Assembly: GCA_947445225.1 (NCBI GenBank)
Contig: CANFCX010000002.1
Coordinates: forward strand, 26,119-90,118
Direction of reading: 5' to 3'
Length of the DNA: 64,000 nucleotides
Source: Rhodospirillales bacterium
GTDB taxonomy: Bacteria; Pseudomonadota; Alphaproteobacteria; CACIAM-22H2
Shown one piece after another: positions 23,891-64,000 of this stretch. The notes under the pieces were generated by a model. It worked only from the letters and a program-made list of their open reading frames with translations, searched no databases and was not told the origin of the DNA. Positions within the stretch are counted from its first letter, which is position 1; every line of letters begins with the position of its first letter. Made by a program: the position numbers and the translations under genes.

Positions 23891-24520
23891 TTGGCGAAAT
23901 CACAGGCATCGACGGGCGCGGGCGACACCGAAATCACACTCGGTCTGCTCAATGCGGTCGAAAAAAACAGCGATCTCACGCAGCGATCGGCGTCCCGCGA
24001 TCTCGGTATCGCGCTGGGTCTGACGAACGCCTATCTGCGCCGCTGCGTCAGCAAGGGGCTGATCAAGGTCAGGCAAATTCCCCGGAAGCGTTATGCGTAT
24101 TATCTGACGCCCAAGGGATTCGCCGAAAAAAGCCGGCTGACCGCGGAATACCTGTCCTCGTCGTTCAATTTTTTTCGCAAGGCCCGCAGCCAGCTCTCGG
24201 AATTGTTCGTGTTGTGCGAACAACGAAACTGGCGCCGCATCGCCCTTTGGGGATCCAGCGAGTTGGCCGAAATCGCCACCTTATGCGCGCGCGAACATGG
24301 CGTCGTTCTGGTCGGCATCCAGGATTCGAGAAGTAAAGCCGACACTTTCGCCGGGCTGAAGGTGTCAAGGCTGCCAGGCCAGCTTGGCGCGGTCGATGCC
24401 GTCATCCTCACCGAAACGCGGGCGCCGCAGGCCGCCTTCGACGAAGCCGCGGCAACCTTCGATCCAGAACGGATCCTGACGCCCAATCTGCTGCGGCTCG
24501 CGCATGGACGGAACCGCTGA
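23891..24520 (+). CDS. putative winged-helix transcriptional regulator, first gene of glycan locus
   Basis: N-terminal wHTH-like segment (LTQRSASRDLGIALGLTNAYLRRCVSKGLIKV...YAYYLTPKG) plus C-terminal alpha/beta domain; family unassigned. Confidence 0.4.
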   Translation: MAKSQASTGAGDTEITLGLLNAVEKNSDLTQRSASRDLGIALGLTNAYLRRCVSKGLIKVRQIPRKRYAYYLTPKGFAEKSRLTAEYLSSSFNFFRKARSQLSELFVLCEQRNWRRIALWGSSELAEIATLCAREHGVVLVGIQDSRSKADTFAGLKVSRLPGQLGAVDAVILTETRAPQAAFDEAAATFDPERILTPNLLRLAHGRNR

Positions 24521-24521
24521 C

Positions 24522-25025
24522 ATGCGGCGATGGTACGTCGCCCACACCCAGCCGCGCGCCGAATCCCAGGCCGAAATGCATTTGCGCCGCCAGGAATTCG
24601 ACGTCTACCTGCCGCGCCACAAAAAACAGCGCCGGCATGCGGGCCGCGCGGAAATCGTCGCGGCACCGTTGTTTCCGGGCTATCTGTTCGTGGGCATCGA
24701 CATGGAGCGCCAGCGTTGGCGTTCCATCGATTCCACGGTCGGCGTTCACCGGCTGGTATCGGGCGGAGACGGACCGATTCCCGTGCCGCCGGAGGTGATC
24801 GAGGCGATCCGCGAGCGCGAGGATGATTGCGGCTTCGTGGTCCTCGGGCGGGGGACAACTTTCGCGAAGGGCGATCGGATACGCGTGGTCGCCGGAGCAT
24901 TGAGCGATCAAGTCGGGTTGTTTGACGACGGGTCCGATTCCCAGCGTGTTGTTGTCCTGCTTCAACTTCTCGGCCGCCCCGTGCGCGTGAGGCTTCCGCT
25001 CGACGCGGTGGCCGCCTGCGCCTAG
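24522..25025 (+). CDS. NusG-family paralog (RfaH/UpxY-like operon-specific antiterminator candidate)
   Basis: NGN domain signature WYVAHTQPRAE...LFPGYLFV and KOW-like C-terminus; ~168 aa; sits directly upstream of the glycan operon leader. Confidence 0.7.
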   Translation: MRRWYVAHTQPRAESQAEMHLRRQEFDVYLPRHKKQRRHAGRAEIVAAPLFPGYLFVGIDMERQRWRSIDSTVGVHRLVSGGDGPIPVPPEVIEAIREREDDCGFVVLGRGTTFAKGDRIRVVAGALSDQVGLFDDGSDSQRVVVLLQLLGRPVRVRLPLDAVAACA

Positions 25026-25124
25026 GCGTAATTGTTCCTGGCGCTCGCCCTCGGCGAGCCCAGTTTTCCGCGGCTTAGGGCGCGGTTGGAGTCAAGTTCC
25101 ACTGGGTGAAGGCTTTCACCCGGA

Positions 25125-25138
25125 CTGCGGTAGCTTTG
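25125..25138 (+). promoter_or_regulatory. ops-like element (ctGCGGTAGCtttg) in operon leader
   Basis: GCGGTAGC at 25127-25134 matches the 8 core positions of E. coli ops GGCGGTAGCGTG on the non-template strand, 32 nt upstream of the first biosynthetic ATG (25166). Confidence 0.45.
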
Positions 25139-25165
25139 CCGCGATCGTAAGGTTTCTTTCCCAAA

Positions 25166-25864
25166 ATGATCAGAGTTTTCATCGGTTACGATCCGCGCGA
25201 GGCGGCGGCGTTCAGCGTGCTCGTCCACAGCATCCACAAACGGGCGACCCAGCCGGTTTGTGTGGTGCCGCTGATGTTGACTCAGCTCGCCGGCACCCTC
25301 ACGCGGCCGCGTGAGAAACTGCAATCGTCGGATTTTTCGTTTTCCAGATTCCTCACGCCGCATCTTGCGGACTACCGCGGTTGGGCGATCTTCATGGATT
25401 GCGACATGATCATGCGCGAGGACATCGGCGCGTTGTGGAACCTCCGCGACGAACGTTTCGCGGTCATGGTCGTCAAACACGATCATGTTCCGTCCGAGAC
25501 CAAGAAATTTCTCGATGAGCCGCAGTCCAAATACGGCAAGAAGAACTGGTCGAGTGTCATGCTGTTCAATTGCGACCGGTGTCGGGCGTTGACACCGTCT
25601 TATGTCAACGCCGCGAGCGGCCTTGAACTCCACCAGTTCAAATGGCTCGGGGACGACTCCTTGATCGGCGAGCTGCCGTCGAAATGGAACCACCTGGTCG
25701 GAGTATCCGCGCCCCGACCCGATGCGGCGTTGGTCCACTACACGATCGGCGGACCCTATTTCGATGAATACCGGGATTGCGAATATTCGGCCGAGTGGTT
25801 CGCCGAACGCGACGACATGATGCGTTGCGACCAGCGGGCGACCGGCCCGGCGAAGCGGCCTTAG
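25166..25864 (+). CDS. nucleotide-diphospho-sugar transferase (GT-A-like, DxD) family protein
   Basis: DxD-like FMDCDMI motif, ~230 aa; weak family assignment. Confidence 0.45.
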   Translation: MIRVFIGYDPREAAAFSVLVHSIHKRATQPVCVVPLMLTQLAGTLTRPREKLQSSDFSFSRFLTPHLADYRGWAIFMDCDMIMREDIGALWNLRDERFAVMVVKHDHVPSETKKFLDEPQSKYGKKNWSSVMLFNCDRCRALTPSYVNAASGLELHQFKWLGDDSLIGELPSKWNHLVGVSAPRPDAALVHYTIGGPYFDEYRDCEYSAEWFAERDDMMRCDQRATGPAKRP

Positions 25865-27412
25865 GTGCTGGCCGTGAGCCCCGATACAGGTTTTCCGCCG
25901 GCCCTCGACGAAGCGACCGCGGCGCGGCGCTTCGCCAGCGTCGGGATAGAGGTGCGGGCGGTTTGGCGCGATCTCGCGCTCAAATTGGCGGAACGGCTAA
26001 AGCAGCGGTACGGGTCCAAGATCCATCTTTACGTTCGCAGCCCGGAGGAACTCCGAGCCTTTCAAAAGATGAACGCCGATGGCCGTTGGGACTCCGTATC
26101 CAACAACAATGTCATCCCCGAAGCCATGCGCGCGACCGGCCTGAACGACGCCGACGTCATTGCCCGCGCCCAAGAATTTGAAAAACAGACCGACACGACG
26201 ATTAACCTGATCGCCTGCGTCCACCGCCATTTCGGCCGCGGCTTCAGTCCGGGCAGCTTCCATTACCCGCGATCGCGGCACTATCAGGCGGTCAGCTACA
26301 TTCAGATGCTGCACGCACATAGCGAGCTGCTTGAATTCTGGCGCCGCGAGATCGAGGGCAAGGGCCTGACCCTGCTGCTCCAAGGCGACAAGGATGCGGC
26401 GATCATGGCCCGCGCCCATGGCATTCTCTATCGCCGTCTCGATACCACGCGCTACAAGAACTATTGGTACTGGACACCGAGCGAGTACTACTTCAACCCC
26501 GCCGTCGAGCCGGCCTATCACGCGATGACGTCGTGGCCGGAATCGGATCTCGGCGAGTCCTACACGCTTGCCACCGCAAAGAAGACTTGGTTCGCCAGCG
26601 ATTCGCTCGCCCTTACCTTGCGCCGCACCGCCATGGCGGCCCTTCGATATGGCTATTGGAAGTTACGGCGCTACCAAAAGGCCGATAGCTACGATTTCAG
26701 AGCCTTCGTGGCCTTCCCCATGCGTGAACATCTCGCCTTTCGGCGCATGACGGGAGCGCGCACCGTGCGGCTTGGTGATCTGGCCGGCCGACGGTTCGCC
26801 TATTTCCCGTTGCACAAGGAACCGGAAACGAGCCTCCAGCTGATGTCGCCGGAGCATTTCAATCAGCACGCCGCGATCCTTTCGATCGCCCGCGACTTGC
26901 CGGCCGGCGTGTTGCTCGCGATCAAGGAGAACATGTGGTCGCTCGGCCGCCGGCCCACCGACTTCTACGAACAAGTCGCCGACCTCAAGAATGTCGTGTT
27001 TCTCGATCTCCGCGAAAATGGCATCGATTGCGCGCGGCAGGCCGATTTCACCGTCACGATCACGGGCACGGCGGGATTCGAAGCCGCCGTGATGGGCAAG
27101 CCCGTTGTCACCTTTGGCCGCCACAACATGTACAGCGTGCTGCCTCACGTTATGACGGTCACCGACGAAAGGCAGATCAAGGGTTTCGTCGATCGGGCGA
27201 TCCACGGCGTCGATCCCGAAAAGGCGCGCAGCGATGGGGCCCGCTTCCTGGCGGCCGCGCTTGCTTGCTCTTTCGACATGAAAAACTTTGCCCTGAATAC
27301 GCGGACGCAGACCGCCCGCCTTCAGGATGACGCGGTCGAAAACGCTTATGCCGGGCTGATTACGAGCCTCGCCCTTCCCGAGACCAACCAGGTGGCGGCC
27401 TTGGCCGGATGA
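25865..27412 (+). CDS. capsule polysaccharide biosynthesis protein, KpsC/KpsS-like (Capsule_synth fold) candidate
   Basis: C-terminal motif TITGTAGFEAAVMGKPVVTFG resembles the NSTVGFEAL...GKPVV motif of KpsC/KpsS beta-Kdo transferases; from memory. Confidence 0.45.
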   Translation: MLAVSPDTGFPPALDEATAARRFASVGIEVRAVWRDLALKLAERLKQRYGSKIHLYVRSPEELRAFQKMNADGRWDSVSNNNVIPEAMRATGLNDADVIARAQEFEKQTDTTINLIACVHRHFGRGFSPGSFHYPRSRHYQAVSYIQMLHAHSELLEFWRREIEGKGLTLLLQGDKDAAIMARAHGILYRRLDTTRYKNYWYWTPSEYYFNPAVEPAYHAMTSWPESDLGESYTLATAKKTWFASDSLALTLRRTAMAALRYGYWKLRRYQKADSYDFRAFVAFPMREHLAFRRMTGARTVRLGDLAGRRFAYFPLHKEPETSLQLMSPEHFNQHAAILSIARDLPAGVLLAIKENMWSLGRRPTDFYEQVADLKNVVFLDLRENGIDCARQADFTVTITGTAGFEAAVMGKPVVTFGRHNMYSVLPHVMTVTDERQIKGFVDRAIHGVDPEKARSDGARFLAAALACSFDMKNFALNTRTQTARLQDDAVENAYAGLITSLALPETNQVAALAG

Positions 27413-28635
27413 CCCTGGAACTCGAATCCCCGCCGCCGGATGTCCGCCGGGCACCATCGCTCCACGACCGCATGCTCGCGAATTTCCGGTTGGCCCGCGA
27501 AAGTTATGTCCGGCACCATCGCAGCCGACATTGGGACCTTTTTCCGCCGGATTACGAGGCGCGGCTTGGCGACGAGAGTCTGTGGCCGGATTTCCGCCGC
27601 AATGGGCTGACCCGCGGGTTCGGCACCTCAAGGGGCGCGCCGGACACGCCCGACGATACGCTCGATTCGCGGGCGGCCGGCAAGTTGGTCGCGGCGTTCG
27701 ACGGGTTGGTCGGGATCACCGGCTTTGAGTTTGTCCGCGATTATCACGAGGCGCGCATCGGCCGCCCGGTGGCTCTGGAACACCGCGGTCTGCTGCTCGA
27801 TCGCAACGATTTGCGTCTGGTCCATGACACCTGGGAGATCGTGCGCCATCTCGGGCTGCCGGCGGATGCGGCGCCGACCTTCGTCGAAATCGGCGGCGGC
27901 CATGGCGGCCTCGTCGCCAAACTCAAACGGCGTTGGCCGCGTGCGCGGTGCATCATCCTCGACCTGCCGGAGGTCAACGCCGTTCAGACCCACTATCTTT
28001 CGACCGCCTTTCCTGGCGCTCGGTTGCTTCTTTATTCCGAGTTCCTGGCCGGCGGCGCCAAGGCGCTTTCAGGCGAGTTCGATTTCGCCATCCTGCCGGG
28101 CTGGACCGCCGATCAATTGCGCGACGAGTCGGCCGATCTGGTGATGAACACCCGGTCGATGCAGGAGATGAACCGCGAGACCATCGGGTTCTATTTCGAC
28201 CGGATTCATCGGTTCCTGCGGCCGGGCGGCCTGTTCTATTGCGTCAATCGCTATACCAAATCGACGGTCGGCGAGCCCATCCGCATTAAGGACTTCCCGT
28301 TCGATGACCGCTGGCACATTCAGGTATCGCGGCCGTCTTTCGACCAGCCTTGGATACATGAGTTGATCGCCGTTCGCTCGACAATGCCGGTCGTGCCGGC
28401 GCCAGCGAGCACACTTGCCGCGTTGCCCCCCTATCGTTTGGCCGATGTCGGGACCGGCTTGGCGACGGCGATCCGGCGGCTGTTCGCGATTATTTTCGGC
28501 GACCATCCCAACATCAATCCGGGCATTCCAGGCACCCTGCGCAACGCTCGCGTGGCGCTGGAGCGGGGTTTGGTGGCTTGGGTGCGCGGGCGCCCCGGTC
28601 TTCGGGCCGGCTTGAAGAAACTTCTGCGCCGCTGA
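27409..28635 (+). CDS. class I SAM-dependent methyltransferase (sugar O-methyltransferase-like)
   Basis: Motif I FVEIGGGHGGL and acidic motif II; ATGA overlap with upstream gene. Confidence 0.55.
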   Translation: MTLELESPPPDVRRAPSLHDRMLANFRLARESYVRHHRSRHWDLFPPDYEARLGDESLWPDFRRNGLTRGFGTSRGAPDTPDDTLDSRAAGKLVAAFDGLVGITGFEFVRDYHEARIGRPVALEHRGLLLDRNDLRLVHDTWEIVRHLGLPADAAPTFVEIGGGHGGLVAKLKRRWPRARCIILDLPEVNAVQTHYLSTAFPGARLLLYSEFLAGGAKALSGEFDFAILPGWTADQLRDESADLVMNTRSMQEMNRETIGFYFDRIHRFLRPGGLFYCVNRYTKSTVGEPIRIKDFPFDDRWHIQVSRPSFDQPWIHELIAVRSTMPVVPAPASTLAALPPYRLADVGTGLATAIRRLFAIIFGDHPNINPGIPGTLRNARVALERGLVAWVRGRPGLRAGLKKLLRR

Positions 28636-28647
28636 CGACGACAAAAC

Positions 28648-29946
28648 GTGCGCCCTCGCCTTGTCCTATTTTTCCTGTCGCCGCGGTTGATCGATTGCGA
28701 CAGCTACTTGCCCGTGGCGATGGAGATGAAGGCGCAGCTTCCCGATCTCGACATCCGGTTCGTTACCTTCAGCCGGGAAAACTACGATGATGTCCGCAGC
28801 AACCCCACTTTGGCGGCGGGCCTCGCCCGCTGTGGCACACTCGCCTGGGTCGGCGGCGAGGGGCCGGGCGGTCGGTTACGACGGTCGCTGCGTCGAATCC
28901 GCAAATTCGCGGAACTCGCCGCAAGCCTTATCCGGCGACCCGGGGCCATGCTCTTTCACGGGCGGCAGTATGTCGAACGCCCCTACCGCGCGCTGTTTTG
29001 GCTGAACCGCATGCTTGGCGGGCGCGGTTTCGTCCTGGCCAGGATCCGCATGGTTGACGAGGGGCACCATCCCCATCGGCTGAGCGAGTTCGAGGTCATG
29101 GGGTCGCGCCGACTCTCGTGGCTTGATCGCCTTCGCGGGCGCGAGAGCGACGGACTTGTGCACTACCACGACCGCCAGGAGATGTATCTCCGCTCTCTCG
29201 CGAAATTTGGACGCACAGACTGGCCGCGGCGCGCCAAAGTCGGGTTGCCCAGCGCCTTGCCTTCATGGCGGGCGCTTATCGCCGAGGCGGTGGAGACCGA
29301 ACGCCAAGCGCTCGCCGCCGCGGGCCGCAACGTGGACGAGATCTACAGTTTCTTTTCTGCCAAGGGTTACAGCTCCACCCATCTGCGCACGCCGGAGTCG
29401 GCGCAACGCACCTTCGACAACGTCGTGCGTAGTTTGACGACCCTGCGGCCGCGCGCGACGATTCTGCTTCGGCCCCATCCCCTGGCCCTGCGCGAACCTT
29501 GGTTCAAGGCGGCGTTGGAGGCGATCGGGAACCCCAATGTGGTTCTCAGCTACGCCCATCCCGAAGTCATGGTCGCCCTGTCGCGCCGTGCCTTGGTCAA
29601 CAATCCCACCAACATCCTGTTCACCACGCCCTTCGGCCGATTCATCGATTGCAGCGACTATCGCCCGTCACATTATGAGCAAGTCGGCGAGGCTTCGCTG
29701 GCGGAGGGATATGGCGTCGTGTTCGTCAACCCCGCCCGCGACGATTTCGCCCAGCGCCTCGAATGGGCGCTCGGCGAGGAGCCGTGGCAAGACGTGGCCG
29801 TCTTCGCCAAGCGGGAGCGACTGAGCCGCGACAATCCGCCCTCGATCGCCGAAATGCTGAACTGGTTCGAGGCGTCCATGCCAAACGCCGATCCCATCCC
29901 CTCGGGCATAAGCAACGCCGCTAGCAGTCCGGGGCAACGACCGTGA
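28648..29946 (+). CDS. hypothetical protein, possible GT-B-like/Capsule_synth-like transferase
   Basis: No firm motif; length and position in glycan operon. Confidence 0.3.
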   Translation: MRPRLVLFFLSPRLIDCDSYLPVAMEMKAQLPDLDIRFVTFSRENYDDVRSNPTLAAGLARCGTLAWVGGEGPGGRLRRSLRRIRKFAELAASLIRRPGAMLFHGRQYVERPYRALFWLNRMLGGRGFVLARIRMVDEGHHPHRLSEFEVMGSRRLSWLDRLRGRESDGLVHYHDRQEMYLRSLAKFGRTDWPRRAKVGLPSALPSWRALIAEAVETERQALAAAGRNVDEIYSFFSAKGYSSTHLRTPESAQRTFDNVVRSLTTLRPRATILLRPHPLALREPWFKAALEAIGNPNVVLSYAHPEVMVALSRRALVNNPTNILFTTPFGRFIDCSDYRPSHYEQVGEASLAEGYGVVFVNPARDDFAQRLEWALGEEPWQDVAVFAKRERLSRDNPPSIAEMLNWFEASMPNADPIPSGISNAASSPGQRP

Positions 29947-30665
29947 GCACCGGCGTTCTTTGCGTGATCCCGGCGCGCGGCGGGTCAAAAGGCCTGCCCC
30001 GGAAAAACGTCCTGCCCCTGGCCGGGCGGCCGCTAGTCGGCTACCCCATCGCGGCGGCGAAGGCGAGCGGCGTGTGCGATGCCATCTTCGTCACGACCGA
30101 CGACGAAGAAATCGCGGCGGTTGCCCGGGCCGAGGGCGCCGATGTGCCGTTCCTGCGGCCCGCCGATTTGGCCGGGGACCTGACGACGACGGAAGCCACG
30201 TTGCGCCACGCCTTGCTCGCCTATGAGTCCCATACCGGACGGCAATTCGACATTTGCGTCTTCCTGACGCCGACCGACATCTTTCGCAGCCCGGCCTGGA
30301 TTGCTCGCGCCGTGAACCTGCTGAAGGAACAGCCGAAACTCGAAAGCGCCTTCGCCGGTACCGCCACGCACAAGAATTACTGGGACCGCGAACCCGGCGG
30401 CGCCTGGGTTCGCGTCCTGCCCTGGATGCGCGACTACAGCTCGCGGCAGGTGCGCCGGAAAATCTATCGCGAGGACACCGGGCTCGCCTGCGCCAGCCGC
30501 GCCGATATCTGGCGCGGCGGACGGCGAATCGGCGACGTCGTTGAAATCATTCCCAACGACCTCCCCGAGACGGCGATCGACATCCATACCGCCTTCGACC
30601 TGTTCCTGGCGACCAAGGCGATCGAATATCTGCGCGCGCACCACCCCGAGCGCCTCCCCGTCTGA
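29943..30665 (+). CDS. acylneuraminate cytidylyltransferase family protein (CMP-ulosonic acid synthetase)
   Basis: N-terminal VIPARGGSKGLPRKN motif of NeuA/PseF/LegF family. Confidence 0.8.
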   Translation: MSTGVLCVIPARGGSKGLPRKNVLPLAGRPLVGYPIAAAKASGVCDAIFVTTDDEEIAAVARAEGADVPFLRPADLAGDLTTTEATLRHALLAYESHTGRQFDICVFLTPTDIFRSPAWIARAVNLLKEQPKLESAFAGTATHKNYWDREPGGAWVRVLPWMRDYSSRQVRRKIYREDTGLACASRADIWRGGRRIGDVVEIIPNDLPETAIDIHTAFDLFLATKAIEYLRAHHPERLPV

Positions 30666-32062
30666 TGGCAAAAACACCAACCGCGACTTCAGGCAACGAT
30701 GGACCTTTGGTCTCCATCATCGTACGCACAAAGAACGAGGAGCGCTGGATCGGTAGCTGCCTGCGCGCCATCCAACGCCAGACCTATCGCAATTACGAAA
30801 TTATCCTGGTCGATAACCTGTCGACCGACCAGACGGTGGCGAAGGCCGCGCCTTTCGGTGTCAAGCTGGTGCGAATCGACAAATTCCTGCCCGGCAAGTC
30901 CCTGAACGACGGCATCCGCGCCAGTCGTGGAGAGATTCTGGTCTGCCTTTCCGGGCACTGCATCCCGGTCAACGAGGTCTGGCTTGGCAATCTCGTCCGC
31001 AATCTCGGCGATTCAGACGTCGCGGGCGTTTATGGCCGTCAGGAGCCGTTGAGCTTTTCGTCCGATCTCGATAAACGCGACCTGCTCATTACATTTGGCC
31101 TCGACCGCAAAGTACAGGTCAGGGACAGCTTTTTTCACAACGCCAACAGCGCGATGCGGCGGGCGGTCTGGGATCGCTTTCCCTTCGACGAAACCGTGAC
31201 CAATATCGAGGATCGGGTGTGGGCGCGACAGGTCCTATCCGCGGGCATGAAGATCGTCTACGAGCCCGAAGCCAGCGTCTACCACTGGCACGGCATCCAT
31301 CAGGAGATGAATTCTGAGCGGGCGCGCAATGTCGTGCGCATCATGGAACAGATCGATGGTACCGAAAGGATCGGCGCCGGCCCCGATTCCGCCGACCTTC
31401 ACGTCGTGGCGATCGTGCCGAGCAAGGGCGAACCGCGCCGATTCAACAACGCGCCGCTCGCCCTGCCCACGCTACGCCACGCGCTGGCCGCCAAATACGT
31501 CAACCATGTATTTGTCGCCACCGACAATGACGAGATGGCGGCGGTGGCGCGATCCGCCGGCGCCGGCGTCATCATGCGGCCGCCGAGCCTGTCCGAAGAC
31601 TACGTTGATATCGTCGATGTGTTGCAATTCGCCTTGGAACGAATCGAGGCGCAGGGGACTGTCCCGGATTTGGTCGTCGCACTCGAGGAGACCCACCCCT
31701 TTCGCCCAATCGCCCTCGTGGATTCAATGATCGCCAAATTGGTGAAGGAAGGGATGGACAGCCTGGTGGCGGCCAAACGGGAGCCCCGCCGCGTGTGGCT
31801 GAGCGACGATGGCTCGATCCGAGATGCGGGAGAGGGCGGATTCATGCCGCGTCAGTTCAAACGCACCGTGGCGTTTATCGGGCTGTTCGGTCTCGCCTTC
31901 GTCACTCACCCCAGCCTGATCCGCAGCGGCAGCATGTTCGGCGGCAAGGCCGGCATCTACGAAATCGACGATCCCTTCTGCGGCATCGAAATCCGCAGCG
32001 AGGAGCATCTGAAAAAAGCCGGCCCGCTGTTCGAGGCGTGGTCCCGAGAGACCCGGCCGTGA
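30665..32062 (+). CDS. bifunctional fusion: N-terminal GT2 glycosyltransferase + C-terminal acylneuraminate-cytidylyltransferase-like domain
   Basis: N-term VSIIVRTKNEERWIGSCLRAIQRQTY...EIILVDN (GT2), C-term AIVPSKGEPRRFNNAPLA...ATDNDEMAAVARSAG (CTase). Confidence 0.65.
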   Translation: MAKTPTATSGNDGPLVSIIVRTKNEERWIGSCLRAIQRQTYRNYEIILVDNLSTDQTVAKAAPFGVKLVRIDKFLPGKSLNDGIRASRGEILVCLSGHCIPVNEVWLGNLVRNLGDSDVAGVYGRQEPLSFSSDLDKRDLLITFGLDRKVQVRDSFFHNANSAMRRAVWDRFPFDETVTNIEDRVWARQVLSAGMKIVYEPEASVYHWHGIHQEMNSERARNVVRIMEQIDGTERIGAGPDSADLHVVAIVPSKGEPRRFNNAPLALPTLRHALAAKYVNHVFVATDNDEMAAVARSAGAGVIMRPPSLSEDYVDIVDVLQFALERIEAQGTVPDLVVALEETHPFRPIALVDSMIAKLVKEGMDSLVAAKREPRRVWLSDDGSIRDAGEGGFMPRQFKRTVAFIGLFGLAFVTHPSLIRSGSMFGGKAGIYEIDDPFCGIEIRSEEHLKKAGPLFEAWSRETRP

Positions 32063-34933: not shown

Positions 34934-34967
34934 ACGCCGTCCCGGCGACAACCTCACGGATGGGGAC

Positions 34968-56775: not shown

Positions 56776-57428
56776 AAGCCGGGATCGTCATCCCCGCGCT
56801 GAACGAGGAAAAAACCATCGTCGAAGTCGTGCGCAGCGTCCGCCCCTATGGCGAGGTGATCGTCGTCGATGACGGCTCCAGCGACGCCACGGCGGCGCTG
56901 GCCGAGACGGCGGGCGCCATTGTCGTCCGGCACGCGGCCAATCGCGGCTATGACGGCGCGCTCGCCAGCGGCTTCGCGCGGGCGGCGTCCTTGAACTTCG
57001 ATGCGGCCTTGTCTTTCGACGCGGACGGGCAACACGATCCCACCGTGATCGCGCGTATGTTGACCCCAATCGCCGCCGGGCAAGCGGATCTGGTGCTCGG
57101 AGCACGGCCGCACCCCGCCCGACCCTCCGAATGGCTGTTCGATCTTTATGCGCGCACCCGATTCGGCGTTCCCGACATCTTGTGCGGCCTCAAGGCATTT
57201 TCGGCATCGGTCTATCGCGCCCATGGCGCGGCGGCGGAAAGGCGATCGATCAATACGGCCATGGCTCTGGCCGCGATCCGCGCGGGCCGCCGTTGGGCAA
57301 ACGTCGCCGTACCGATCCGGCCGCGCGACGGACAACCCCGATTCGGCTCGGCCCTGCGGGCGAACTGGCGGATCGTCAAGGCGCTAGGCGGCGCCGTCGC
57401 CGATGATTTCGGCGGCAGGCCGGCATGA
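56772..57428 (+). CDS. glycosyltransferase family 2 (small, DPM1-like)
   Basis: VIPALNEEKTI...VIVVDDGSSD GT2 N-terminus. Confidence 0.6.
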   Translation: MKAGIVIPALNEEKTIVEVVRSVRPYGEVIVVDDGSSDATAALAETAGAIVVRHAANRGYDGALASGFARAASLNFDAALSFDADGQHDPTVIARMLTPIAAGQADLVLGARPHPARPSEWLFDLYARTRFGVPDILCGLKAFSASVYRAHGAAAERRSINTAMALAAIRAGRRWANVAVPIRPRDGQPRFGSALRANWRIVKALGGAVADDFGGRPA

Positions 57429-58180
57429 CCAACGTCGTTGCCGTAATCCAGGCGCGGATGACGTCCACGCGTTTGCCGGGGAAGGTTCTCATGCCCTTGG
57501 CCGGCGCCCCGCTTCTGACCCGCATGATCGAGCGCGTGCGCCGCATCCGCGGGCTCGATCGAATCTGCGTCGCCATTCCCGAAGGCGCGGCGCATGACCC
57601 GATTGCCGAACTGGTCCGTGGGTTGGGGGATGTGACGCTGGTGCGCGGCCCGGAGGACGACGTCTTGCGCCGCACGGCGATGGCCGCGACGGCGTGCCGC
57701 GCGGATATCGTCGTTCGGTTGACCTCGGACTGCCCGATGATCGCCCCCGATGTTTGCGCTGTGGTTATCGCGATGCGGCAGGCGACCGGCACGCCCTATG
57801 CGCGAACCGCGTTCGCAAGCGGCTATCCCCTCGGCTTCGATACCGAAGTCGTCCGCGCGGACGCCTTGGCGGAGGCGGATCGGGAAGCCGTGGATCCCTA
57901 TGAGCGCGAACACGTCACACCCTTCCTGTGGCGCCGCCCGGAGCGTTATCCCTGTGTCTTCCTCGATCGCCGCCCAACGCGGCGCGATTGGCGGCTGGTG
58001 GTCGACACCGCCCAGGATCTGGAACTGGCGAGGAACGTCTTCGACGCTCTCTATTCGACGCGCCCGGCCTTTGGCTTCGCCGACATCGAAGCATTATTCG
58101 CGGCCAGGCCGGAGCTGCTCGACATCAACCGCGCCACGGCGCAAAACCCCTATCGCGGACTTCCGCAGGACGCACCATGA
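57425..58180 (+). CDS. cytidylyltransferase (PseF/SpsF-like CMP-nonulosonic acid synthetase)
   Basis: VIQARMTSTRLPGKVL motif characteristic of PseF/SpsF-type cytidylyltransferases. Confidence 0.8.
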   Translation: MTNVVAVIQARMTSTRLPGKVLMPLAGAPLLTRMIERVRRIRGLDRICVAIPEGAAHDPIAELVRGLGDVTLVRGPEDDVLRRTAMAATACRADIVVRLTSDCPMIAPDVCAVVIAMRQATGTPYARTAFASGYPLGFDTEVVRADALAEADREAVDPYEREHVTPFLWRRPERYPCVFLDRRPTRRDWRLVVDTAQDLELARNVFDALYSTRPAFGFADIEALFAARPELLDINRATAQNPYRGLPQDAP

Positions 58181-58809
58181 CACTCGGCGAAAAACAACTC
58201 GGCATCTGGCGCGGCGATTTCGGCAACGCGTATATCGAGCGCAACCAGGCAACCGCGGAACGTGTCAGACAGCGCGTCGCGGCTTTTGCTTCGATCCTGC
58301 CCCACCTCGCCGGTGCGCCGGCGGCGTCGATTCTCGAGGTCGGCGCCAATATCGGGCTCAACCTGCGCGCCCTCGCCGGCCTTACCGGAGCCGTGCTCCA
58401 CGCCGTGGAGCCAAACCGCCAAGCCCGCGAGATCTTGATTGCGGAATCCGTCTTGCCGGTCGAGCGCGTTCATGACGCCACGGCGGCGGCGTTGCCGATG
58501 GCGGATGCCTCGTTTGACCTCGTTTTCACCTCGACGGTGTTGATCCATGTACCGGACGAGGCGCTCGCCGCGGCCATGCGGGAGATTCATCGCGTCAGCC
58601 GGCGCTGGATCCTCTGCATGGAGTATTTCTCCCCGGTGGCGCAGACCATCACCTATCGCGGGCATGGCGACCTGCTGTTCAAACGCGACTATGGCGGACT
58701 TTGGCTCGACGGCTTTCCCGACCTTGAATACGTCGCCGATGGATTTTTCTGGAAGCGGACAACCGGGCTGGACGACGTCAATTGGTGGTTGTTTCGGAAA
58801 TCCCATTGA
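58177..58809 (+). CDS. pseudaminic-acid-biosynthesis-associated methylase-like SAM methyltransferase
   Basis: ~210 aa MTase, motif I ILEVGANIGLNL; resembles TIGR03587-type methylases from memory. Confidence 0.55.
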   Translation: MTLGEKQLGIWRGDFGNAYIERNQATAERVRQRVAAFASILPHLAGAPAASILEVGANIGLNLRALAGLTGAVLHAVEPNRQAREILIAESVLPVERVHDATAAALPMADASFDLVFTSTVLIHVPDEALAAAMREIHRVSRRWILCMEYFSPVAQTITYRGHGDLLFKRDYGGLWLDGFPDLEYVADGFFWKRTTGLDDVNWWLFRKSH

Positions 58810-59945
58810 CCGCGCCGACCGCAGCGGCCCGAAGCGGGAGGGAACCGCTTCGGGTTTTATTTTTTCTGCCCGACCTCGATCTGGGTGGCGCGCAACGGAC
58901 GGTCGTCAACTTGGTCAACAATCTGCCGCGAGCCGGTGTCGTGCCGATGCTGGCCGTGGCGCGGGCCGATGGACCAGCTCGCGAGTGGCTTGCGAAAGAT
59001 ATCAGCTTCGTCGATTTAGCCGCGGGCCGGTTGCGTGGCGCGGCCCTACCCCTCAGGCGTTTGATCACCGCGACTCGTCCAGACCTTGTTTTCGCGACCA
59101 TCGCACACGCCAATGTCGTCGCGACGTTGGCGACACTCGGGCTTTCACACCGGCCGGCTATCGTGTTGCGCGAGACCAACAGCCATCGCCATCGTCCCGA
59201 TCTGTCTTGGGCCAGCCGCGTGGCGATCGCCTGGGCCTATCGCCGCGCCGATGCCGTGGTGGCGCTTTCGAGCGGAGTCGGCCGCGAATTGACGGAATCC
59301 TACGGTCTCGATCCGAGGCGGGTCGTCACCATTCACAATCCGGTCGAGGTCGAACACATCGCCGCGAACGCGCGCACCGCCATTCGGCCATGGACAGCCG
59401 ACGCACCCGTGGTGATCGGGCTCGGGCGATTGGTCGCGCAGAAGGGTTTCGATCTTCTTCTCCGTGCTTTCGCGGCGGCGGCGCCGGACAATGCTCGGCT
59501 GGTCATCATCGGCGACGGCCCCGACCGCGGCGCCCTTCAACACCTTGCCGGCGAACTCCGCATCGAAGGCCGCGTCGGGATACGGACCAGCGTCGAGAAC
59601 ATCGCTCCCTGGCTGACCCACGCCGCCATGTTCGTCTTGTCGTCGCGTTGGGAGGGTTTCGGTCATGTCATCGTCGAGGCCATGGCCTGCGGCACTCCCG
59701 TGATCGCCGCGGATTGCCCATACGGTCCCGCCGACATCGTCCGCCATGATCGGGACGGGTTGCTGGTTCCGGCAACCCTCGGTGGACTGACCGACGGCAT
59801 GAAAAAGCTATTCGGCGATCCTGCCTTGGCCAGGCGCCTGGGGGCGGCGGCGGTCGAGTCTTCGCGCCGCTTCTCCGCCGACCGTATCGCCGCCCGTTAT
59901 GCGGACCTGTTCCATCGCCTTTGTGCCGCGAAGGAAGCCGCGTGA
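58782..59945 (+). CDS. glycosyltransferase family 4
   Basis: GT4 signatures (GRLVAQKGFDLLL, SRWEGFGHVIVEAMACGTPVIA); start uncertain (TTG 58806 possible). Confidence 0.7.
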   Translation: MVVVSEIPLTAPTAAARSGREPLRVLFFLPDLDLGGAQRTVVNLVNNLPRAGVVPMLAVARADGPAREWLAKDISFVDLAAGRLRGAALPLRRLITATRPDLVFATIAHANVVATLATLGLSHRPAIVLRETNSHRHRPDLSWASRVAIAWAYRRADAVVALSSGVGRELTESYGLDPRRVVTIHNPVEVEHIAANARTAIRPWTADAPVVIGLGRLVAQKGFDLLLRAFAAAAPDNARLVIIGDGPDRGALQHLAGELRIEGRVGIRTSVENIAPWLTHAAMFVLSSRWEGFGHVIVEAMACGTPVIAADCPYGPADIVRHDRDGLLVPATLGGLTDGMKKLFGDPALARRLGAAAVESSRRFSADRIAARYADLFHRLCAAKEAA

Positions 59946-61042
59946 GCACCGACCGTCGTATCCTGCATGTCATCACCGACCTCGATGTCGGCGGCGCCGA
60001 GAACATGCTGGCGACACTTCTTGAGGCAAGGCGGCCGAACGCACCCAAGGCTTCCGTGGTCAGCCTGACACCCGCCGGTCCCCTCGCCGAACGTATCGCC
60101 CACGCGGGTGTACCCGTCGCGGATCTGGGAATTGCCGGCGCGGGAGCGATTCTCCCCGGACTTTGGAGGCTCGCCGCCCATATTCGCTCGTGGAAGCCGC
60201 ACGCCATTCAAGGCTGGATGTATCACGGCAATCTCGCGGCGACCGTCGCCCTCGGTCTTTCCGGGCGACGCCGCGGGACCGGGCTCTACTGGGGCATTCG
60301 TTGCTCCGACATGGATCTCAGCCGATATGACCGGCAGTTGCGGTTGATCGTGCGGGCCGGAGCCCGCCTCTCCCACTTGCCCGACGCCATCGTTGCGAAT
60401 TCAGAGGCCGGCCGGACGACACATGAACGACTGGGCTACCAGGCACAGCGGTTTGACGTGATCGACAACGGCATCGACACCGAACGATTTCGCCCGGACC
60501 CCAGGGCACGGGCAGAGTTGCGGTCGTCTCTCGGCCTCGCCGAGGGAATGCCCGTGCTGATCCATGTTGCTCGCCGCGACCCGATGAAGGATCACGAAAC
60601 GATGCTCGCGAGTTTGGCCCAGTTGCCCGGGACCGCATTGCTGGTCGTCGGTTTGGGCACGGAGACGCTCCCCGAACGTGCCGGGCTTCATCGACTCGGG
60701 CGACGCGACGACGTCGCGCGCGTGTTGGCCGCCTCGGACCTGGTGGTTTCGTCCTCGGCTTTCGGCGAAGGTTTTCCGAGCGCGATCGCGGAGGGCATGG
60801 CCGCTGGGTTGCCGGCGGTCGCCACGGACGTCGGTGATTCCGCGCGCATCATTGGCGGGACCGGCCGAGTCGTGCCACCATCCGATCCGGTGGCGATGAG
60901 TGCCGCCATCGCCGGGCTCCTGAAGGAGGGACCGGAATCATTGGCCAAACGCGGCATCGCCGCTCGCCGACGGATCGAAGAGAATTTTTCCGTGGCCCGC
61001 GCCGCCGCCGCCTTCGACGCGCTCCACCTGGGTTTGACCTAA
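59942..61042 (+). CDS. glycosyltransferase family 4
   Basis: GT4 signatures (SSAFGEGFPSAIAEGMAAGLPAVATD); GTG 59942 (GTGA overlap). Confidence 0.75.
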   Translation: MSTDRRILHVITDLDVGGAENMLATLLEARRPNAPKASVVSLTPAGPLAERIAHAGVPVADLGIAGAGAILPGLWRLAAHIRSWKPHAIQGWMYHGNLAATVALGLSGRRRGTGLYWGIRCSDMDLSRYDRQLRLIVRAGARLSHLPDAIVANSEAGRTTHERLGYQAQRFDVIDNGIDTERFRPDPRARAELRSSLGLAEGMPVLIHVARRDPMKDHETMLASLAQLPGTALLVVGLGTETLPERAGLHRLGRRDDVARVLAASDLVVSSSAFGEGFPSAIAEGMAAGLPAVATDVGDSARIIGGTGRVVPPSDPVAMSAAIAGLLKEGPESLAKRGIAARRRIEENFSVARAAAAFDALHLGLT

Positions 61043-61044
61043 CC

Positions 61045-62949
61045 ATGTGCGGCATCGCCGGACTCGTCGATCTCGGCGGCATCAACCGGGCCATTGTGGC
61101 GCCGCGCTTGTCGGCGGCACTGGATCGCCTGAAGCGACGCGGCCCGGACGGCGAAGGAACCTGGTTCGACGAGCGTGCCGCTTTCGGCCATCGCCGGCTG
61201 GCCATTATCGACCTTACTCAAGCAGCGGCCCAACCGATGGCCGCCCATGGTTTCGTCGTCACCTATAATGGCGAAGTCTATAATTTCTCCGCGCTGCGCG
61301 AGGAGCTTGCGGCGCGCGGCCATCGCTTTCAGACCCAATCCGACACCGAAATCCTGCTTGCGGGTTGGCGCGAATGGGGCGAAGGCCTTCTCGACCGGAT
61401 TTCCGCCATGTTCGCCTTCGCCCTGTGGGATCCGGAAAAGGGCGAGTTGATCCTGGCGCGCGACCGCTTCGGCAAGAAGCCTCTATTGTTTCACCACGAC
61501 GGCAGGCGGCTGGCCTTTGCCTCCGATCTGATCGCCCTCGAAAAACTCGCGGGTGCCCAATTCCCCATCGATCCGGAGGCGTTGCGCCTCTATTTCGCCT
61601 TGCGCTTCGTCCCCGAGTCTCGATCGATCGCGGCCGGGGTTACCAAGCTTCCGCCGGGGCATCTTGTCCGATTCTCCGCGACCGGGATGAGCATTACGCG
61701 ATGGTATCGGCCGGAGAGAACCGCCGCGCCTGTCTTTGCCACGGAAGACGAAGCCGGGTCCGCGTTGAGGCGCCATTTGAAGACCGCGGTTGCGGATCGT
61801 TTGGTGGCCGATGTTCCGGTCGGCGCGTTTCTTTCCGGGGGCATCGATTCGTCCATCATCGCCGCGCTGATGGCCGAACGGGGTGGCACGGTGCGTACCT
61901 TTACCGTGGGTTTCGCCGACGCTCCCGAATATTACGAAGAAAGACCCGCGGCACAGGTGGTCGCCAACCATCTCGGCACCAAACACACCGAAATCGCGGT
62001 TTCGGCGAACGACGCATTGGCGGCTCTGCCGGAGGTGTTCGCCGGGCTCGATGAACCCTTTGCCGACAGCTCGGCGGTGCCGACCTATCTCGTTTCGCGA
62101 GCGACTCGCCAGCATGTGACGGTTGCCCTGTCGGGCGATGGCGCCGATGAAGTGTTTGGTGGCTATCGCCGTTATCAGGGCGAGTTGTATGCGGAGAGGT
62201 ATCGCCGCCTGCCGCGTTGGCTGCGAAAAAATGTCATCGAAACCCTGGTCGGCCTTCTGCCCGAGAGCAAGGACAATCCGGTGCTGGAGGCGAGCCGGCG
62301 GATCAAGCGTTTTGCCGCCCATGCCGGAAAGACCGCGACCGAGCGGCAGGCGGGCTGGGCGCGATCGCTGAACGAAGACGAACTCGACGCGTTGCTGGTC
62401 TCACCGGCGCCGACGGCGCCGACCGTGGAGGCGCTGGTCGGACAACTCCGCGAAGGCCAATCCGGAAGCGACCCGATCAATGTCATGCTGGGCACGGAAA
62501 TCGCGTTCGGCCTGCCCGGCGACATGCTGGTGAAGGTTGACCGCATGAGCATGGCCAACGGACTCGAAGTCAGATGCCCGTATTTGGATCACCACGTCAT
62601 CGAATGCGCCGCGGCGATGCCCGGCGGCTTCAAGCTGGCACCCGGCCTCGGCAAACGCATCCTTCGCCGTGCCTTCGCGGACGTTCTTCCGGCATCGGTC
62701 TTCGCGCGCCCCAAGAAAGGCTTCGAGTTGCCGGTCGCCGCGTGGTTGACCGGCGATCTGGCGGACGGCTTGCGGCGCGCCATCGATCCGGCGCGGCTCA
62801 AGCGCCAGGGTTTGTTTAGGCCGGAACCACCACAGCGCTGGCTGGCCGACCTAAAATCCGGCCGCCGCGATACGGCCTGGACCTTGTGGACACTGCTCGC
62901 CTTTCAGTCCTGGGCCGAGGCGCATGGCCGGCCGGAGGCGCACGCGTGA
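61045..62949 (+). CDS. asparagine synthetase B-type glutamine amidotransferase (copy 2)
   Basis: MCGIAG, PP-loop FLSGGIDSS. Confidence 0.85.
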   Translation: MCGIAGLVDLGGINRAIVAPRLSAALDRLKRRGPDGEGTWFDERAAFGHRRLAIIDLTQAAAQPMAAHGFVVTYNGEVYNFSALREELAARGHRFQTQSDTEILLAGWREWGEGLLDRISAMFAFALWDPEKGELILARDRFGKKPLLFHHDGRRLAFASDLIALEKLAGAQFPIDPEALRLYFALRFVPESRSIAAGVTKLPPGHLVRFSATGMSITRWYRPERTAAPVFATEDEAGSALRRHLKTAVADRLVADVPVGAFLSGGIDSSIIAALMAERGGTVRTFTVGFADAPEYYEERPAAQVVANHLGTKHTEIAVSANDALAALPEVFAGLDEPFADSSAVPTYLVSRATRQHVTVALSGDGADEVFGGYRRYQGELYAERYRRLPRWLRKNVIETLVGLLPESKDNPVLEASRRIKRFAAHAGKTATERQAGWARSLNEDELDALLVSPAPTAPTVEALVGQLREGQSGSDPINVMLGTEIAFGLPGDMLVKVDRMSMANGLEVRCPYLDHHVIECAAAMPGGFKLAPGLGKRILRRAFADVLPASVFARPKKGFELPVAAWLTGDLADGLRRAIDPARLKRQGLFRPEPPQRWLADLKSGRRDTAWTLWTLLAFQSWAEAHGRPEAHA

Positions 62950-64000
62950 AAATCTGCCAGCTCTGCGCCGTCGATTTCACGTTGCACACCTTTCTCTTGC
63001 CGCTGATGCGCGGCATGCGGGAGGCGGGGCATGAGGTCGTCGGCGTTTGTGCCGACGGACCACTTCTGGCGGGCGTGCGGGCGCAAGGATTCACCGTCGA
63101 GACCGTTCCTTTCGTCCGCGGCTACAAACCCTTGGCCCATCTCCGCGCCTTCCGCGCCTTGGTGCGGATATTTCGCCGCGAAAACTTCGACCTTGTTCAT
63201 ACCCATACACCGATCGGTGCCTTGATCGGCCGTCTGGCCGCCGCCTGGGCCGGCGTGCCGCGAATCGTTTATACCGCCCATGGCTTCTACTTCCACGACC
63301 GCATGCCTCTGTGGAAGCGGGCCTTGTTCATGGCGCTTGAATTCGTTCCGGGCCGCTTCACCGACATTCTGTTCACGCAGTCGGCGGAGGACGCGGCCAC
63401 CGCCCGACAATTCCGCCTGTGCCGCGGTGGGATCGTCGAGGCGATCGGCAATGGCGCCGATCCCGCGCGGTTCCACCCGGTGGCCGATGGCGATCGCGAG
63501 CGTAACGCTCTGCGCCGGCAGCTCGACACGCCTGACGAGGCCGTGGTCATCGTCACCGTGGGAAGGCTGGTCGCCGAAAAGGGTTATCCCGAACTTTTCA
63601 CGGCGATGCGCGAGGTGAACGCGATTTTATGGGCGGTCGGCGAAAGGTTGCCGAGCGACCATGCGGCAGGCATCGAGGCGGCGATCGAGACGGCGCAATC
63701 CGATCCCAATCGCCGGGTTCGCCTGCTTGGCTACCGCCCGGACATTCCCCATTTGCTGAGGGCCGCCGACATCTTCGTGCTGGCATCCCATCGCGAGGGC
63801 ATGCCCCGTTCGATCATCGAGGCCATGTTTACCGGCTTGCCCGTCGTGGCCACCGATATTCGCGGCTGCCGCGAAGAGGTTGCCGCGGAGTCGACCGGAA
63901 TTCTGGTGCCGGTCGAAGACCGGCCCGCGTTGGCGGCAGCCCTGAACCGGCTTGTCGTGGACCGGAGCCTGCGGGCGCGCATGGGTGCGGCCGGACGAGA
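62946..64000 (+). CDS. glycosyltransferase family 4, 3-prime truncated by window end
   Basis: Hand-read frame from GTG 62946 (GTGA overlap): VKICQLCAVDFTLHTFLLPL... with GT4 C-domain (ASHREGMPRSIIEAMFTGLPVVATD); no stop before 64000. Confidence 0.7.
   Translation, partial: MKICQLCAVDFTLHTFLLPLMRGMREAGHEVVGVCADGPLLAGVRAQGFTVETVPFVRGYKPLAHLRAFRALVRIFRRENFDLVHTHTPIGALIGRLAAAWAGVPRIVYTAHGFYFHDRMPLWKRALFMALEFVPGRFTDILFTQSAEDAATARQFRLCRGGIVEAIGNGADPARFHPVADGDRERNALRRQLDTPDEAVVIVTVGRLVAEKGYPELFTAMREVNAILWAVGERLPSDHAAGIEAAIETAQSDPNRRVRLLGYRPDIPHLLRAADIFVLASHREGMPRSIIEAMFTGLPVVATDIRGCREEVAAESTGILVPVEDRPALAAALNRLVVDRSLRARMGAAGR

Follow-up and report, generated by a model that had tools for sequence, protein, structure and literature searches.

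A long co-directional surface-glycan locus headed by an RfaH-like NusG paralog and an ops-like element in an alphaproteobacterium

Results

A co-directional glycan locus between a heparinase-like gene and purH

A 64,000-nucleotide stretch of DNA from a Rhodospirillales bacterium of the Alphaproteobacteria (GenBank assembly GCA_947445225.1, contig CANFCX010000002.1, positions 26,119 to 90,118; hereafter the window, numbered from its first nucleotide) was found to carry, from position 23891 to its end, an unbroken chain of 37 genes, all on the plus strand. Genes for a winged helix-turn-helix (wHTH) regulator and an RfaH-like paralog of the transcription factor NusG stand at its head, followed by an untranslated leader with a conserved hairpin and an element resembling the ops (operon polarity suppressor) signal of Escherichia coli, and then by a long array of glycan genes (Table 1). 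Independent gene calls on public contigs 99.95-100% identical to the window likewise placed every gene from the wHTH gene onward on the plus strand, with zero on the minus strand. Using a contig (L001) that is identical to window positions 56127-64000 and extends beyond them, the locus could be followed for ~5.5 kb more, to about 69468 in window-equivalent coordinates, giving a total of ~45.6 kb and 41 genes, all on the plus strand, with a heparinase II/III-like gene on one side and purH on the other. Past g37 the order is g38 (NAD-binding), a terminator-like element (T2), g39 (Wzy_C), g40 (an initiating transferase, WecA-like), g41 (a dehydratase, WbpM/PglF-like) and purH, with gaps of 151 nt after g38 and 139 nt before the WbpM-like gene, and with purH starting 27 nt after g41.

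The locus is of the surface-glycan type (lipopolysaccharide (LPS) O-antigen or capsule), built around modified nonulosonic acids. It encodes two NeuB-family synthases, PseB, and three cytidylyltransferases, with a fourth such domain fused to a glycosyltransferase of family 2 (GT2), together with a WbuX/HisH/HisF amidino module (g19-g21), three AsnB-type amidotransferases, an MsbA/HepA-like ATP-binding cassette (ABC) exporter, carbamoyl- and formyltransferases, five methyltransferases and one deacetylase. Nine genes encode glycosyltransferases (g03, g08, g26, g31, g34, g35 and g37, with g39 and g40 beyond the window).

Packing of the genes is tight. The 36 junctions in the window comprise 20 possible 4-nt overlaps, one overlap of 1 nt, overlaps of 10, 11 and 31 nt, 11 gaps of 1-34 nt and the 140-nt leader, so that neighbouring genes overlap at 24 of 36 junctions, compared with none of the eight co-directional junctions among the upstream core genes (rimM, trmD, rplS, leuC, leuD, leuB, rpe and the heparinase-like gene; Fisher p=0.0007), which makes the tight packing a property of the cluster and not of the genome at large. 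A first-pass annotation of the same DNA had described a co-directional, tightly packed glycan cluster of about 38 genes adjoining core genes, and this description held, with rpe and the heparinase-like gene upstream and purH downstream, except that the genes within the window number 37. All 17 of the four-nucleotide overlaps that it listed (ATGA ten times, GTGA five times and TTGA twice) were recovered at the positions given, and three more are possible, GTGA at 29943 and TTGA at 47681 and 58806. Some of these overlapping starts are ambiguous: the public gene calls take ATG 34190 and ATG 46608 and not GTG 34040 and TTG 46593, and at 34040 the Pfam domain boundary supports the earlier start. 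The gaps longer than 20 nt that had been listed (25026-25165, 34934-34967 and 44565-44587) stand, with one of 23 nt (45698-45720) to be added.

An RfaH-like factor and a hairpin-ops leader at the head of the locus

At the head of the locus, g02 begins with ATG 24522, 1 nt past the stop codon of g01. Of the NCBIfam models, RfaH scored best with its product (TIGR01955, 130 bits; cut-off 144.5), followed by UpxY (NF033644, 82 bits; cut-off 100), NusG (61 bits) and LoaP (NF033641, 56 bits; cut-off 125), and the best match among solved structures was E. coli RfaH (1.9e-12), with NusG at 4.5e-09. In the alignment with E. coli RfaH, residues H20, R23 and Q24 are kept, and position 73 is variable across the family. 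The wHTH protein encoded by g01 scored 63.7 bits against the MarR-type family associated with exopolysaccharide (EPS) loci (NCBIfam TIGR04176, MarR_EPS), under the cut-off of 88, and 46 of 58 related loci have a homolog of it directly 5' of the RfaH-like gene. Its ~100 C-terminal amino acids (residues 104-209) gave no Pfam match; tblastn alignments to homologs in related loci were observed to run through this half of the gene (24200-24517), which may be a ligand-binding domain. Upstream of g01 lies a candidate main promoter, for which position is the sole argument; the regional count of such sites was not above chance.

The ops-like element of the leader, TGCGGTAGCTTT, differs from the 12-nt E. 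coli ops, GGCGGTAGnnTG, by two mismatches at its ends, and its core, GCGGTAGC, is identical to E. coli ops positions 2-9 and occurs as a single copy on the plus strand of the 64 kb. In E. coli, ops bases including C3, G4, G5, T6, A7 and G8 form and fill the recognised hairpin in the non-template DNA (PMC6391919). To survey leaders, 80 metagenome loci encoding RfaH-like relatives (40-60% identical) were collected, 73 of which had enough DNA downstream of the gene. The ops core was found in 55 of these 73, ~50-170 nt (mostly 50-90 nt) past the stop codon of the RfaH-like gene, with the family consensus TGCGGTAGC[G/A/T]TG, or, written with its first position, [T/G]GCGGTAGC[G/A/T]TG. Rfam searches of the window (at gathering thresholds) and of the leader (E<=10) returned nothing relevant, and no JUMPstart match.

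Immediately upstream of the element, ending 2 nt before the 12-nt ops equivalent and 3 nt before the GCGGTAGC core, lies a hairpin that was found in all 56 distinct leaders, with a conserved 3' arm, TTCACCCGGA, abutting ops. Alignment of the 56 leaders with MAFFT and RNAalifold recovered only a 2-bp mini-hairpin of ops and missed the upstream hairpin because loop lengths vary, and each leader was therefore folded separately and compared with versions in which the 5' arm had been shuffled. The mean minimum free energy (MFE) was -13.5 kcal/mol for the native leaders and -7.9 kcal/mol for the shuffled ones (Wilcoxon 8e-11; 56 leaders), and compensatory variants were seen in five loci (L103, L112, L131, L138 and L163). 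The 3' end of the hairpin is ~13 nt from the U that matches the E. coli ops pause position; this spacing, together with the conservation, suggests a hairpin-stabilised pause. A second hairpin, directly after the g02 stop codon (25038-25063), was not conserved in relatives and was absent from the leader consensus; it may weakly attenuate transcription on the way from the regulator genes to ops.

Dozens of related metagenome loci share the complete head of wHTH gene, RfaH-like gene, hairpin and ops. In four relatives for which genes were called (carrying the RfaH-like proteins P0002, P0092, P0105 and P0055, the last three in loci L175, L176 and L177), the wHTH gene and the NusG paralog stand before a co-directional run of glycan genes at least 10 kb long. 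The hairpin and ops were confirmed in L175-L177, the cargo of which consists of nonulosonic-acid genes including NeuB, and in a short contig carrying P0002 (L005); the ops core is likewise present in L175-L177. Only 77 nt in all separate the RfaH-like gene of L175 from the next gene, leaving no room for a separate promoter, and transcription of ops must there begin 5' of the regulator genes or within them. Downstream of ops, the relatives gave one strict plus-strand terminator in 166 kb. A crude gene caller based on GC content at third codon positions (GC3), also applied to related loci, is unreliable below ~55% GC and broke the runs in some of them, and its results accordingly count as weak support. 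One relative, P0036, is encoded without a wHTH gene and without ops in an EPS locus of mixed orientation, and the RfaH-like family is thus not uniformly tied to long co-directional arrays.

Terminator-like elements at module boundaries

Between 25166 and 58809 (31 genes, 33.6 kb; g03-g33) there was found no gap longer than 34 nt and no strict terminator. Promoter-like sites within the cluster were not above chance and none was intergenic, the sole intergenic one being that before the wHTH gene (23838-23867). A terminator-like element, T1, begins 17 nt past the stop codon of g33, within codons 7-21 of g34, and elements of its strength arose in 3 of 400 shuffles. Its loop holds GGGAGGG, and its T-tract encodes the conserved VLFFL of the N-terminus of the family 4 glycosyltransferase (GT4). 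Placement of T1 in a true intergenic gap was considered and rejected, with no canonical start codon between 58806 and the GT4 N-terminal motif (from 58851); usable start codons of g34 lie only at or before 58806.

A second element, T2, lies 31 nt past the stop codon of g38, inside the 151-nt gap and ~1 kb past the window, so that the two elements bracket g34-g38. In three related loci (L020, L042 and L043; about 12390-18600), homologs of g34-g37 (34-63% identical) stand as an inverted block directly beside the heparinase-like gene. T1 thus stands at a module seam, g34-g37 being a separately conserved module. The only other strict terminator in the window (7667-7693, minus strand) follows a small Lys/Ala-rich, histone H1-like ORF (~7778-7862, minus strand).

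Composition of the locus and occupancy of its site

The cluster and the flanking core genes did not differ in GC content (0.639 and 0.640) or GC3 (0.767 and 0.769; Mann-Whitney p above 0.7 for each), and codon usage was the same (codon-usage likelihood p = 0.99); the GC content of the window is 64%. No tRNA was found, no integrase or transposase domain was detected by Pfam among 57 proteins scanned, and no repeat of 9 nt or longer was shared between the two cluster boundaries. GC skew was negative throughout 24000-64000, the cumulative value running from -0.30 to -1.38, and was near zero over 8-20 kb.

Comparison with relatives gave a different view of the site. Of 80 alphaproteobacterial loci, ~30, among them L009 (Stellaceae) and L010, have no insert, with rpe, the heparinase-like gene and purH following one another, and as the heparinase-like gene abuts purH in ~30 genomes the cluster occupies an insertion hot spot. 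Closer relatives have the site filled differently. The relative encoding P0002, with an RfaH-like protein 59% identical to that of g02, has the cassette in the corresponding place, after rpe and the heparinase-like gene, but other cargo behind it; in three others purH is preceded only by WecA-like and/or WbpM-like genes (L034, L041 and L063), one has a 5.3-kb insert (L046), and in another a wHTH homolog lies 1.7 kb after the heparinase-like gene (L019). A 3.3-kb contig from another sample (L169) is 100% identical to window positions 23837-26749, but the 434 nt at its start bear no relation to the heparinase-like gene. The breakpoint, 23837/23838, falls exactly at the -35-like TTGACG, and a further contig (L173) starts at 23827. 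This junction may stem from a second genomic setting, from rearrangement or from an error of assembly; a 74-amino-acid ORF fragment of the left flank of L169 gave no match in Pfam.

The earlier annotation had read the locus as ancient and chromosomal and not as a recent island, citing a GC content equal to that of the flanks and a boundary free of tRNA, integrase and repeats. Each of these compositional and boundary observations was borne out, and codon usage proved equally indistinguishable from the flanks, but synteny supported the reading as ancient only in part, with the site empty in some relatives and filled with different cargo in others. The locus is best described as a long-resident, modular, recombining glycan hot spot, distinct both from an ancient operon fixed in place and from a mobile island of the classical kind.

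Upstream of the cluster lie ffh, rimM, trmD, rplS, leuCDB, asd, rpe and the heparinase II/III-like gene and, farther off, a gene for an EcfG/PhyR-type sigma factor, a sign of an alphaproteobacterial host; the best matches of rpe were 77-79% identical and came from Azospirillum, Stellaceae and unclassified metagenome-assembled genomes. The heparinase II/III-like gene (22214-23791) adjoins purH in many alphaproteobacteria, and in L175 it lies (5823-7331) among glycan genes upstream of the cassette; it may belong to glycan metabolism itself.

Table 1. Genes and sequence elements of the locus, in window coordinates
Feature	Position	Strand	Assignment	Remarks
Candidate main promoter	23838..23867	+	TTGACG-18-TATCGT	99-nt gap between heparinase-like and wHTH genes; 9/12 consensus match
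g01	23891..24520	+	wHTH regulator, MarR-like, EPS-associated	209 aa; Pfam HTH_24 7e-09
g02	24522..25025	+	RfaH-like NusG paralog	167 aa; Pfam NusG 1.8e-24; model P0001
Leader hairpin	25038..25063	+	CUGGCGCUCGCC-CUC-GGCGAGCCCAG then UUUU	11 bp, directly after g02 stop; leader MFE z = -2.5
Conserved hairpin	25102..25123	+	CUGGGUGAA-GGCU-UUCACCCGG	56 distinct leaders
ops-like element	25126..25137	+	TGCGGTAGCTTT	core GCGGTAGC at 25127-25134
g03	25166..25864	+	glycosyltransferase	weak GT8 match
g04	25874..27412	+	capsule-synthesis-like	weak match; alternative start 25865
g05	27409..28635	+	methyltransferase
g06	28648..29946	+		no family match
g07	29943..30665	+	CMP-sugar cytidylyltransferase, PseF-like
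g08	30665..32062	+	GT2 glycosyltransferase fused with cytidylyltransferase domain
g09	32059..33150	+	GFO/IDH/MocA oxidoreductase
g10	33147..34043	+	DAHP-synthase-type aldolase, Bacillus type	TIGR01361 279.9 bits (cut-off 267.75)
g11	34040..34933	+	shikimate-dehydrogenase-like	public start 34190; Pfam boundary favours 34040 or 34109
g12	34968..35810	+	methyltransferase
g13	35817..36752	+		no family match
g14	36749..38581	+	fused ABC exporter, MsbA/HepA-like
g15	38578..39402	+	formyltransferase-like
g16	39399..40349	+	polysaccharide deacetylase
g17	40346..41362	+	NeuB-family nonulosonic acid synthase	first copy
g18	41366..43192	+	AsnB-type amidotransferase
g19	43189..43809	+	HisH-like glutamine amidotransferase
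g20	43818..44564	+	HisF-like cyclase
g21	44588..45697	+	WbuX N-acetyl sugar amidotransferase	313.7 bits (cut-off 203.2)
g22	45721..46596	+	methyltransferase
g23	46593..47684	+	NAD-dependent epimerase/dehydratase	alternative start 46608
g24	47681..49273	+		no family match; alternative start 47648
g25	49270..50955	+	asparagine-synthase-like	divergent
g26	50946..52214	+	GT1-family (GT4-type) glycosyltransferase
g27	52184..53830	+	carbamoyltransferase
g28	53820..54866	+	PseB, UDP-GlcNAc 4,6-dehydratase (inverting)	510 bits (cut-off 407.75)
g29	54869..55708	+	RmlD-like reductase
g30	55705..56775	+	NeuB-family nonulosonic acid synthase	second copy
g31	56772..57428	+	GT2 glycosyltransferase
g32	57425..58180	+	cytidylyltransferase
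g33	58177..58809	+	methyltransferase	last gene of module A
g34	58806..59945	+	GT4 glycosyltransferase	first gene of module B; start TTG 58806 overlaps g33 stop
T1	58826..58866	+	intrinsic-terminator-like	12-bp stem (8 G-C), 7-nt loop, then TTTTATTTTTT
g35	59942..61042	+	GT4 glycosyltransferase	55% identical homolog in inverted module of L020, L043
g36	61045..62949	+	AsnB-type amidotransferase	homologs 58-60% identical in L020, L042, L043
g37	62946..64000	+	GT4 glycosyltransferase	runs off window; 379 aa in L001
T2	L001 8857-8884 (window-equivalent 64983-65010)		terminator-like, 12 bp then TTCTTTTT	as strong as T1
aa, amino acids; CMP, cytidine monophosphate; DAHP, 3-deoxy-D-arabino-heptulosonate 7-phosphate; UDP-GlcNAc, uridine diphosphate N-acetylglucosamine.

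Discussion

RfaH-type antitermination as the preferred reading

On balance we think it probable, though some way short of secure, that this is a hypervariable chromosomal glycan locus in which the head of wHTH gene, RfaH-like gene, hairpin and ops governs expression by RfaH-type antitermination. From the features of the head we infer that the factor would load at this ops and suppress termination, and that one transcript would span the locus. Transcription would start upstream of the wHTH gene and pass through the RfaH-like gene, and RNA polymerase would pause at the hairpin-ops site (25102-25137), where the RfaH-like protein would bind the ops hairpin in the non-template DNA strand and remain on the polymerase. 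So modified, the polymerase would resist Rho and read through the hairpins at 58826 and ~64983, with expression of the distal genes as the outcome, and the overlapping stop and start codons would hold ribosomes close behind it. The conservation of factor and signal together in dozens of loci makes processive antitermination the best-supported mechanism, and the claim of the first-pass annotation that a transcription unit of this length relies on it remains the best mechanistic reading, given a NusG paralog with RfaH as its best match, an ops core and a conserved head.

Several observations weigh against this reading. The RfaH score of g02 lies under the NCBIfam cut-off; the protein is without the E. 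coli DNA-contact residues K10 (Q here) and R73 (V) and the autoinhibition residue E48 (A); and AlphaFold2 predicted its C-terminal domain as a beta-barrel KOW domain and not as the alpha-hairpin of RfaH (predicted local distance difference test score, pLDDT, 89.6), in a model of a single state, not decisive for a domain that may switch fold. The ops of the window has an extra T relative to the family consensus (GCGGTAGCTTTG) and lies ~100 nt past the stop codon, farther than the family norm. The scan for promoters used a sigma-70 consensus, and is weak evidence for an alphaproteobacterium. T1, T2, the gaps of 151 and 139 nt and the position of purH 27 nt on suggest extra promoters and sub-operons, and E. 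coli RfaH has an effect of only ~2-fold at intrinsic terminators (PMC6391919), with the consequence that read-through of T1 and T2 is not guaranteed.

The single transcription unit that had been proposed for the whole span is therefore retained in part. One transcript is plausible and well motivated for g03-g33 (25166-58809), with which the sequence is compatible; beyond T1 it would be conditional on read-through, of the sort that a NusG paralog at the head would supply, and for the whole span T1, T2, the two long gaps and the spacing of purH speak against it. The placement of a housekeeping gene, purH, 27 nt after the last cluster gene argues for internal promoters in the tail, and the tail genes probably have promoters of their own.

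A more far-reaching proposal, which we offer tentatively and hold to be doubtful as it stands, is that the wHTH gene, RfaH-like gene, hairpin and ops may form a portable 'operon head' that allows formerly independent glycan operons to be stacked, relic terminators included, into a super-operon of more than 45 kb at the heparinase-like/purH hot spot. T1 and T2 would on this proposal be fossil operon ends, T1 would act as a checkpoint passed only with the RfaH-like factor or a close ribosome, and the hairpin would be a pause-stabilising addition that is not part of the E. coli ops.

Alternative explanations

The locus might instead consist of several adjacent operons that share an orientation, in which unit A (g03-g33) would end at T1 and unit B (g34-g38) at T2, the tail (Wzy_C and WecA-like genes; WbpM-like gene with purH) would have its own promoters, and the RfaH-like factor would serve or modulate the first unit only. 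The strength of T1 and its position 17 nt past a stop codon would fit such an arrangement, as would T2 in its 151-nt gap 31 nt past the stop of g38, the 139-nt gap before the WbpM-like gene, and the existence of the g34-g37 homologs as an independent inverted block in L020, L042 and L043. The WecA-like and WbpM-like genes, moreover, occur alone with purH in five loci (L012, L034, L041, L060 and L082) and must have their own promoters there, and dependence of purH on a promoter 45 kb off seems implausible. The junction of g33 and g34, however, has no space for a promoter, with the TTGA overlap at 58806 and T1 inside the coding sequence of g34; no promoter-like site rose above chance; and an antitermination head makes most sense where there are terminators to read through. 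Taking these points together we consider separate operons rather unlikely as the account of the whole locus.

That the cluster is a genomic island, newly transferred into the space between the heparinase-like gene and purH, appears improbable. The direct adjacency of these two genes in ~30 alphaproteobacterial genomes, the varying cargo of relatives and the contig L169, in which a 100% identical 2.9-kb head is joined to unrelated DNA at the left edge of the cluster, would all be expected of an island, but L169 is one short contig from a metagenome, the cluster equals the core flanks in GC, GC3 and codon usage, and neither tRNA, integrase or transposase domain nor boundary repeat was found. The cassette, furthermore, occupies the same site in the relative with a 59% identical RfaH-like protein, a wHTH homolog follows the heparinase-like gene of L019 at a distance of 1.7 kb, and relatives have the tail genes at this site in common with the cluster. 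We regard as very improbable the idea that co-directionality is a by-product of strand bias (replication co-orientation) without operon meaning: most genes from ~11.3 kb (12325 by Pfam) to 64000, ribosomal and leu genes among them, do lie on the plus strand, but the overlaps are specific to the cluster (24/36 against 0/8), the layout of cassette and array recurs in unrelated contigs, and the GC skew of the cluster is negative where a leading strand is expected to be positive.

Relation to known systems

Long glycan operons with a NusG paralog at their head are a kind of system already known. The closest parallel is the RfaH-ops system (JUMPStart) of the LPS core, O-antigen and capsule operons of E. 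coli and Salmonella, with which the locus shares a NusG paralog that matches RfaH best, a core, GCGGTAGC, identical to E. coli ops positions 2-9, and the placement of the element in an untranslated leader before a long co-directional polysaccharide operon. The gene for E. coli RfaH is unlinked and acts in trans on several operons, whereas here the gene stands in cis and precedes the ops core by 100 nt, a linkage seen in most relatives; a wHTH partner and a conserved hairpin abutting ops are further differences, as are the lack of conservation of K10, R73 and E48, the predicted beta-barrel of the C-terminal domain and the absence of a match to Rfam or JUMPstart. Enterobacterial RfaH targets are ~10-20 kb long, compared with ~45 kb for the locus described here.

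Alphaproteobacteria account for 18% of rfaH genes, RfaH clusters outside the enterobacteria adjoin envelope genes, and in one of them, CL4, the gene goes together with an HTH regulator; how such a factor is recruited is understood for E. coli RfaH alone (PMC7593976). Clusters CL2-CL8 of Wang et al. 2020 (mBio, PMC7593976) resemble the present case in having an alphaproteobacterial RfaH-like gene beside glycosyltransferase, epimerase and exopolysaccharide genes, and CL4 does so in its adjacent HTH regulator, a likeness of gene neighbourhood. The present family differs from them in that a canonical ops core with a hairpin lies directly downstream of the gene in most members.

UpxY of Bacteroides, like g02, is a NusG paralog encoded by the leading gene of the polysaccharide operon that it is thought to control, in genomes with many alternative glycan loci. 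The UpxY score of g02 is nevertheless under that of RfaH, and there is here no UpxZ-like partner and no small downstream inhibitor gene, the partner being an upstream wHTH protein and the signal ops-like. LoaP (Bacillus dfn) and TaA (Myxococcus ta) are likewise encoded by cis-linked genes before very long operons; those operons make polyketides, whereas the genes here make glycans, and LoaP scored lowest of the four models with g02. LoaP has been reported to act at intrinsic terminators inside its operon (PMC6391919).

Hypervariable O-antigen and capsule loci at fixed chromosomal sites are well known, such as that between galF and gnd in Enterobacteriaceae. As there, conserved flanks (the heparinase-like gene and purH) enclose glycan gene sets that differ between relatives; unlike such loci, this one has no low-GC signature, its composition equalling that of the core, and the site is empty in many alphaproteobacteria. 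What is distinctive is the unusual length, the cis-linked hairpin-ops cassette and the presence of terminator-like elements where modules meet. As a single transcription unit, the locus would be among the longest polysaccharide operons described, and would offer a natural test of how far an RfaH-type factor carries RNA polymerase. The cis-linked cassette places a near-canonical ops core well outside the enterobacteria, physically tied to the gene for the factor, and provides a candidate recruitment site for RfaH-like proteins of which the literature calls the recruitment unknown (PMC7593976). The heparinase-like/purH hot spot may also serve to anchor searches for surface-glycan loci in uncultured alphaproteobacteria.

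Further features of the glycan genes

Of the 37 ORFs in the window, 32 had a Pfam match (E<=0.01) and g21 matched only WbuX of NCBIfam; g06, g13, g24 and the C-terminal half of g01 gave no family match in these searches. The cluster also contains an unusual trio for a glycan locus, g09-g11 (32059-34933), which encodes a GFO oxidoreductase, a DAHP synthase of Bacillus type and a shikimate-dehydrogenase-like protein. Assignment of g10 as KdsA was rejected, the models for 3-deoxy-D-manno-octulosonate 8-phosphate (KDO8P) synthase lying far under their cut-offs and the Bacillus-type DAHP synthase above its own. The presence of this trio suggests a heptulosonate- or shikimate-derived substituent on the glycan.

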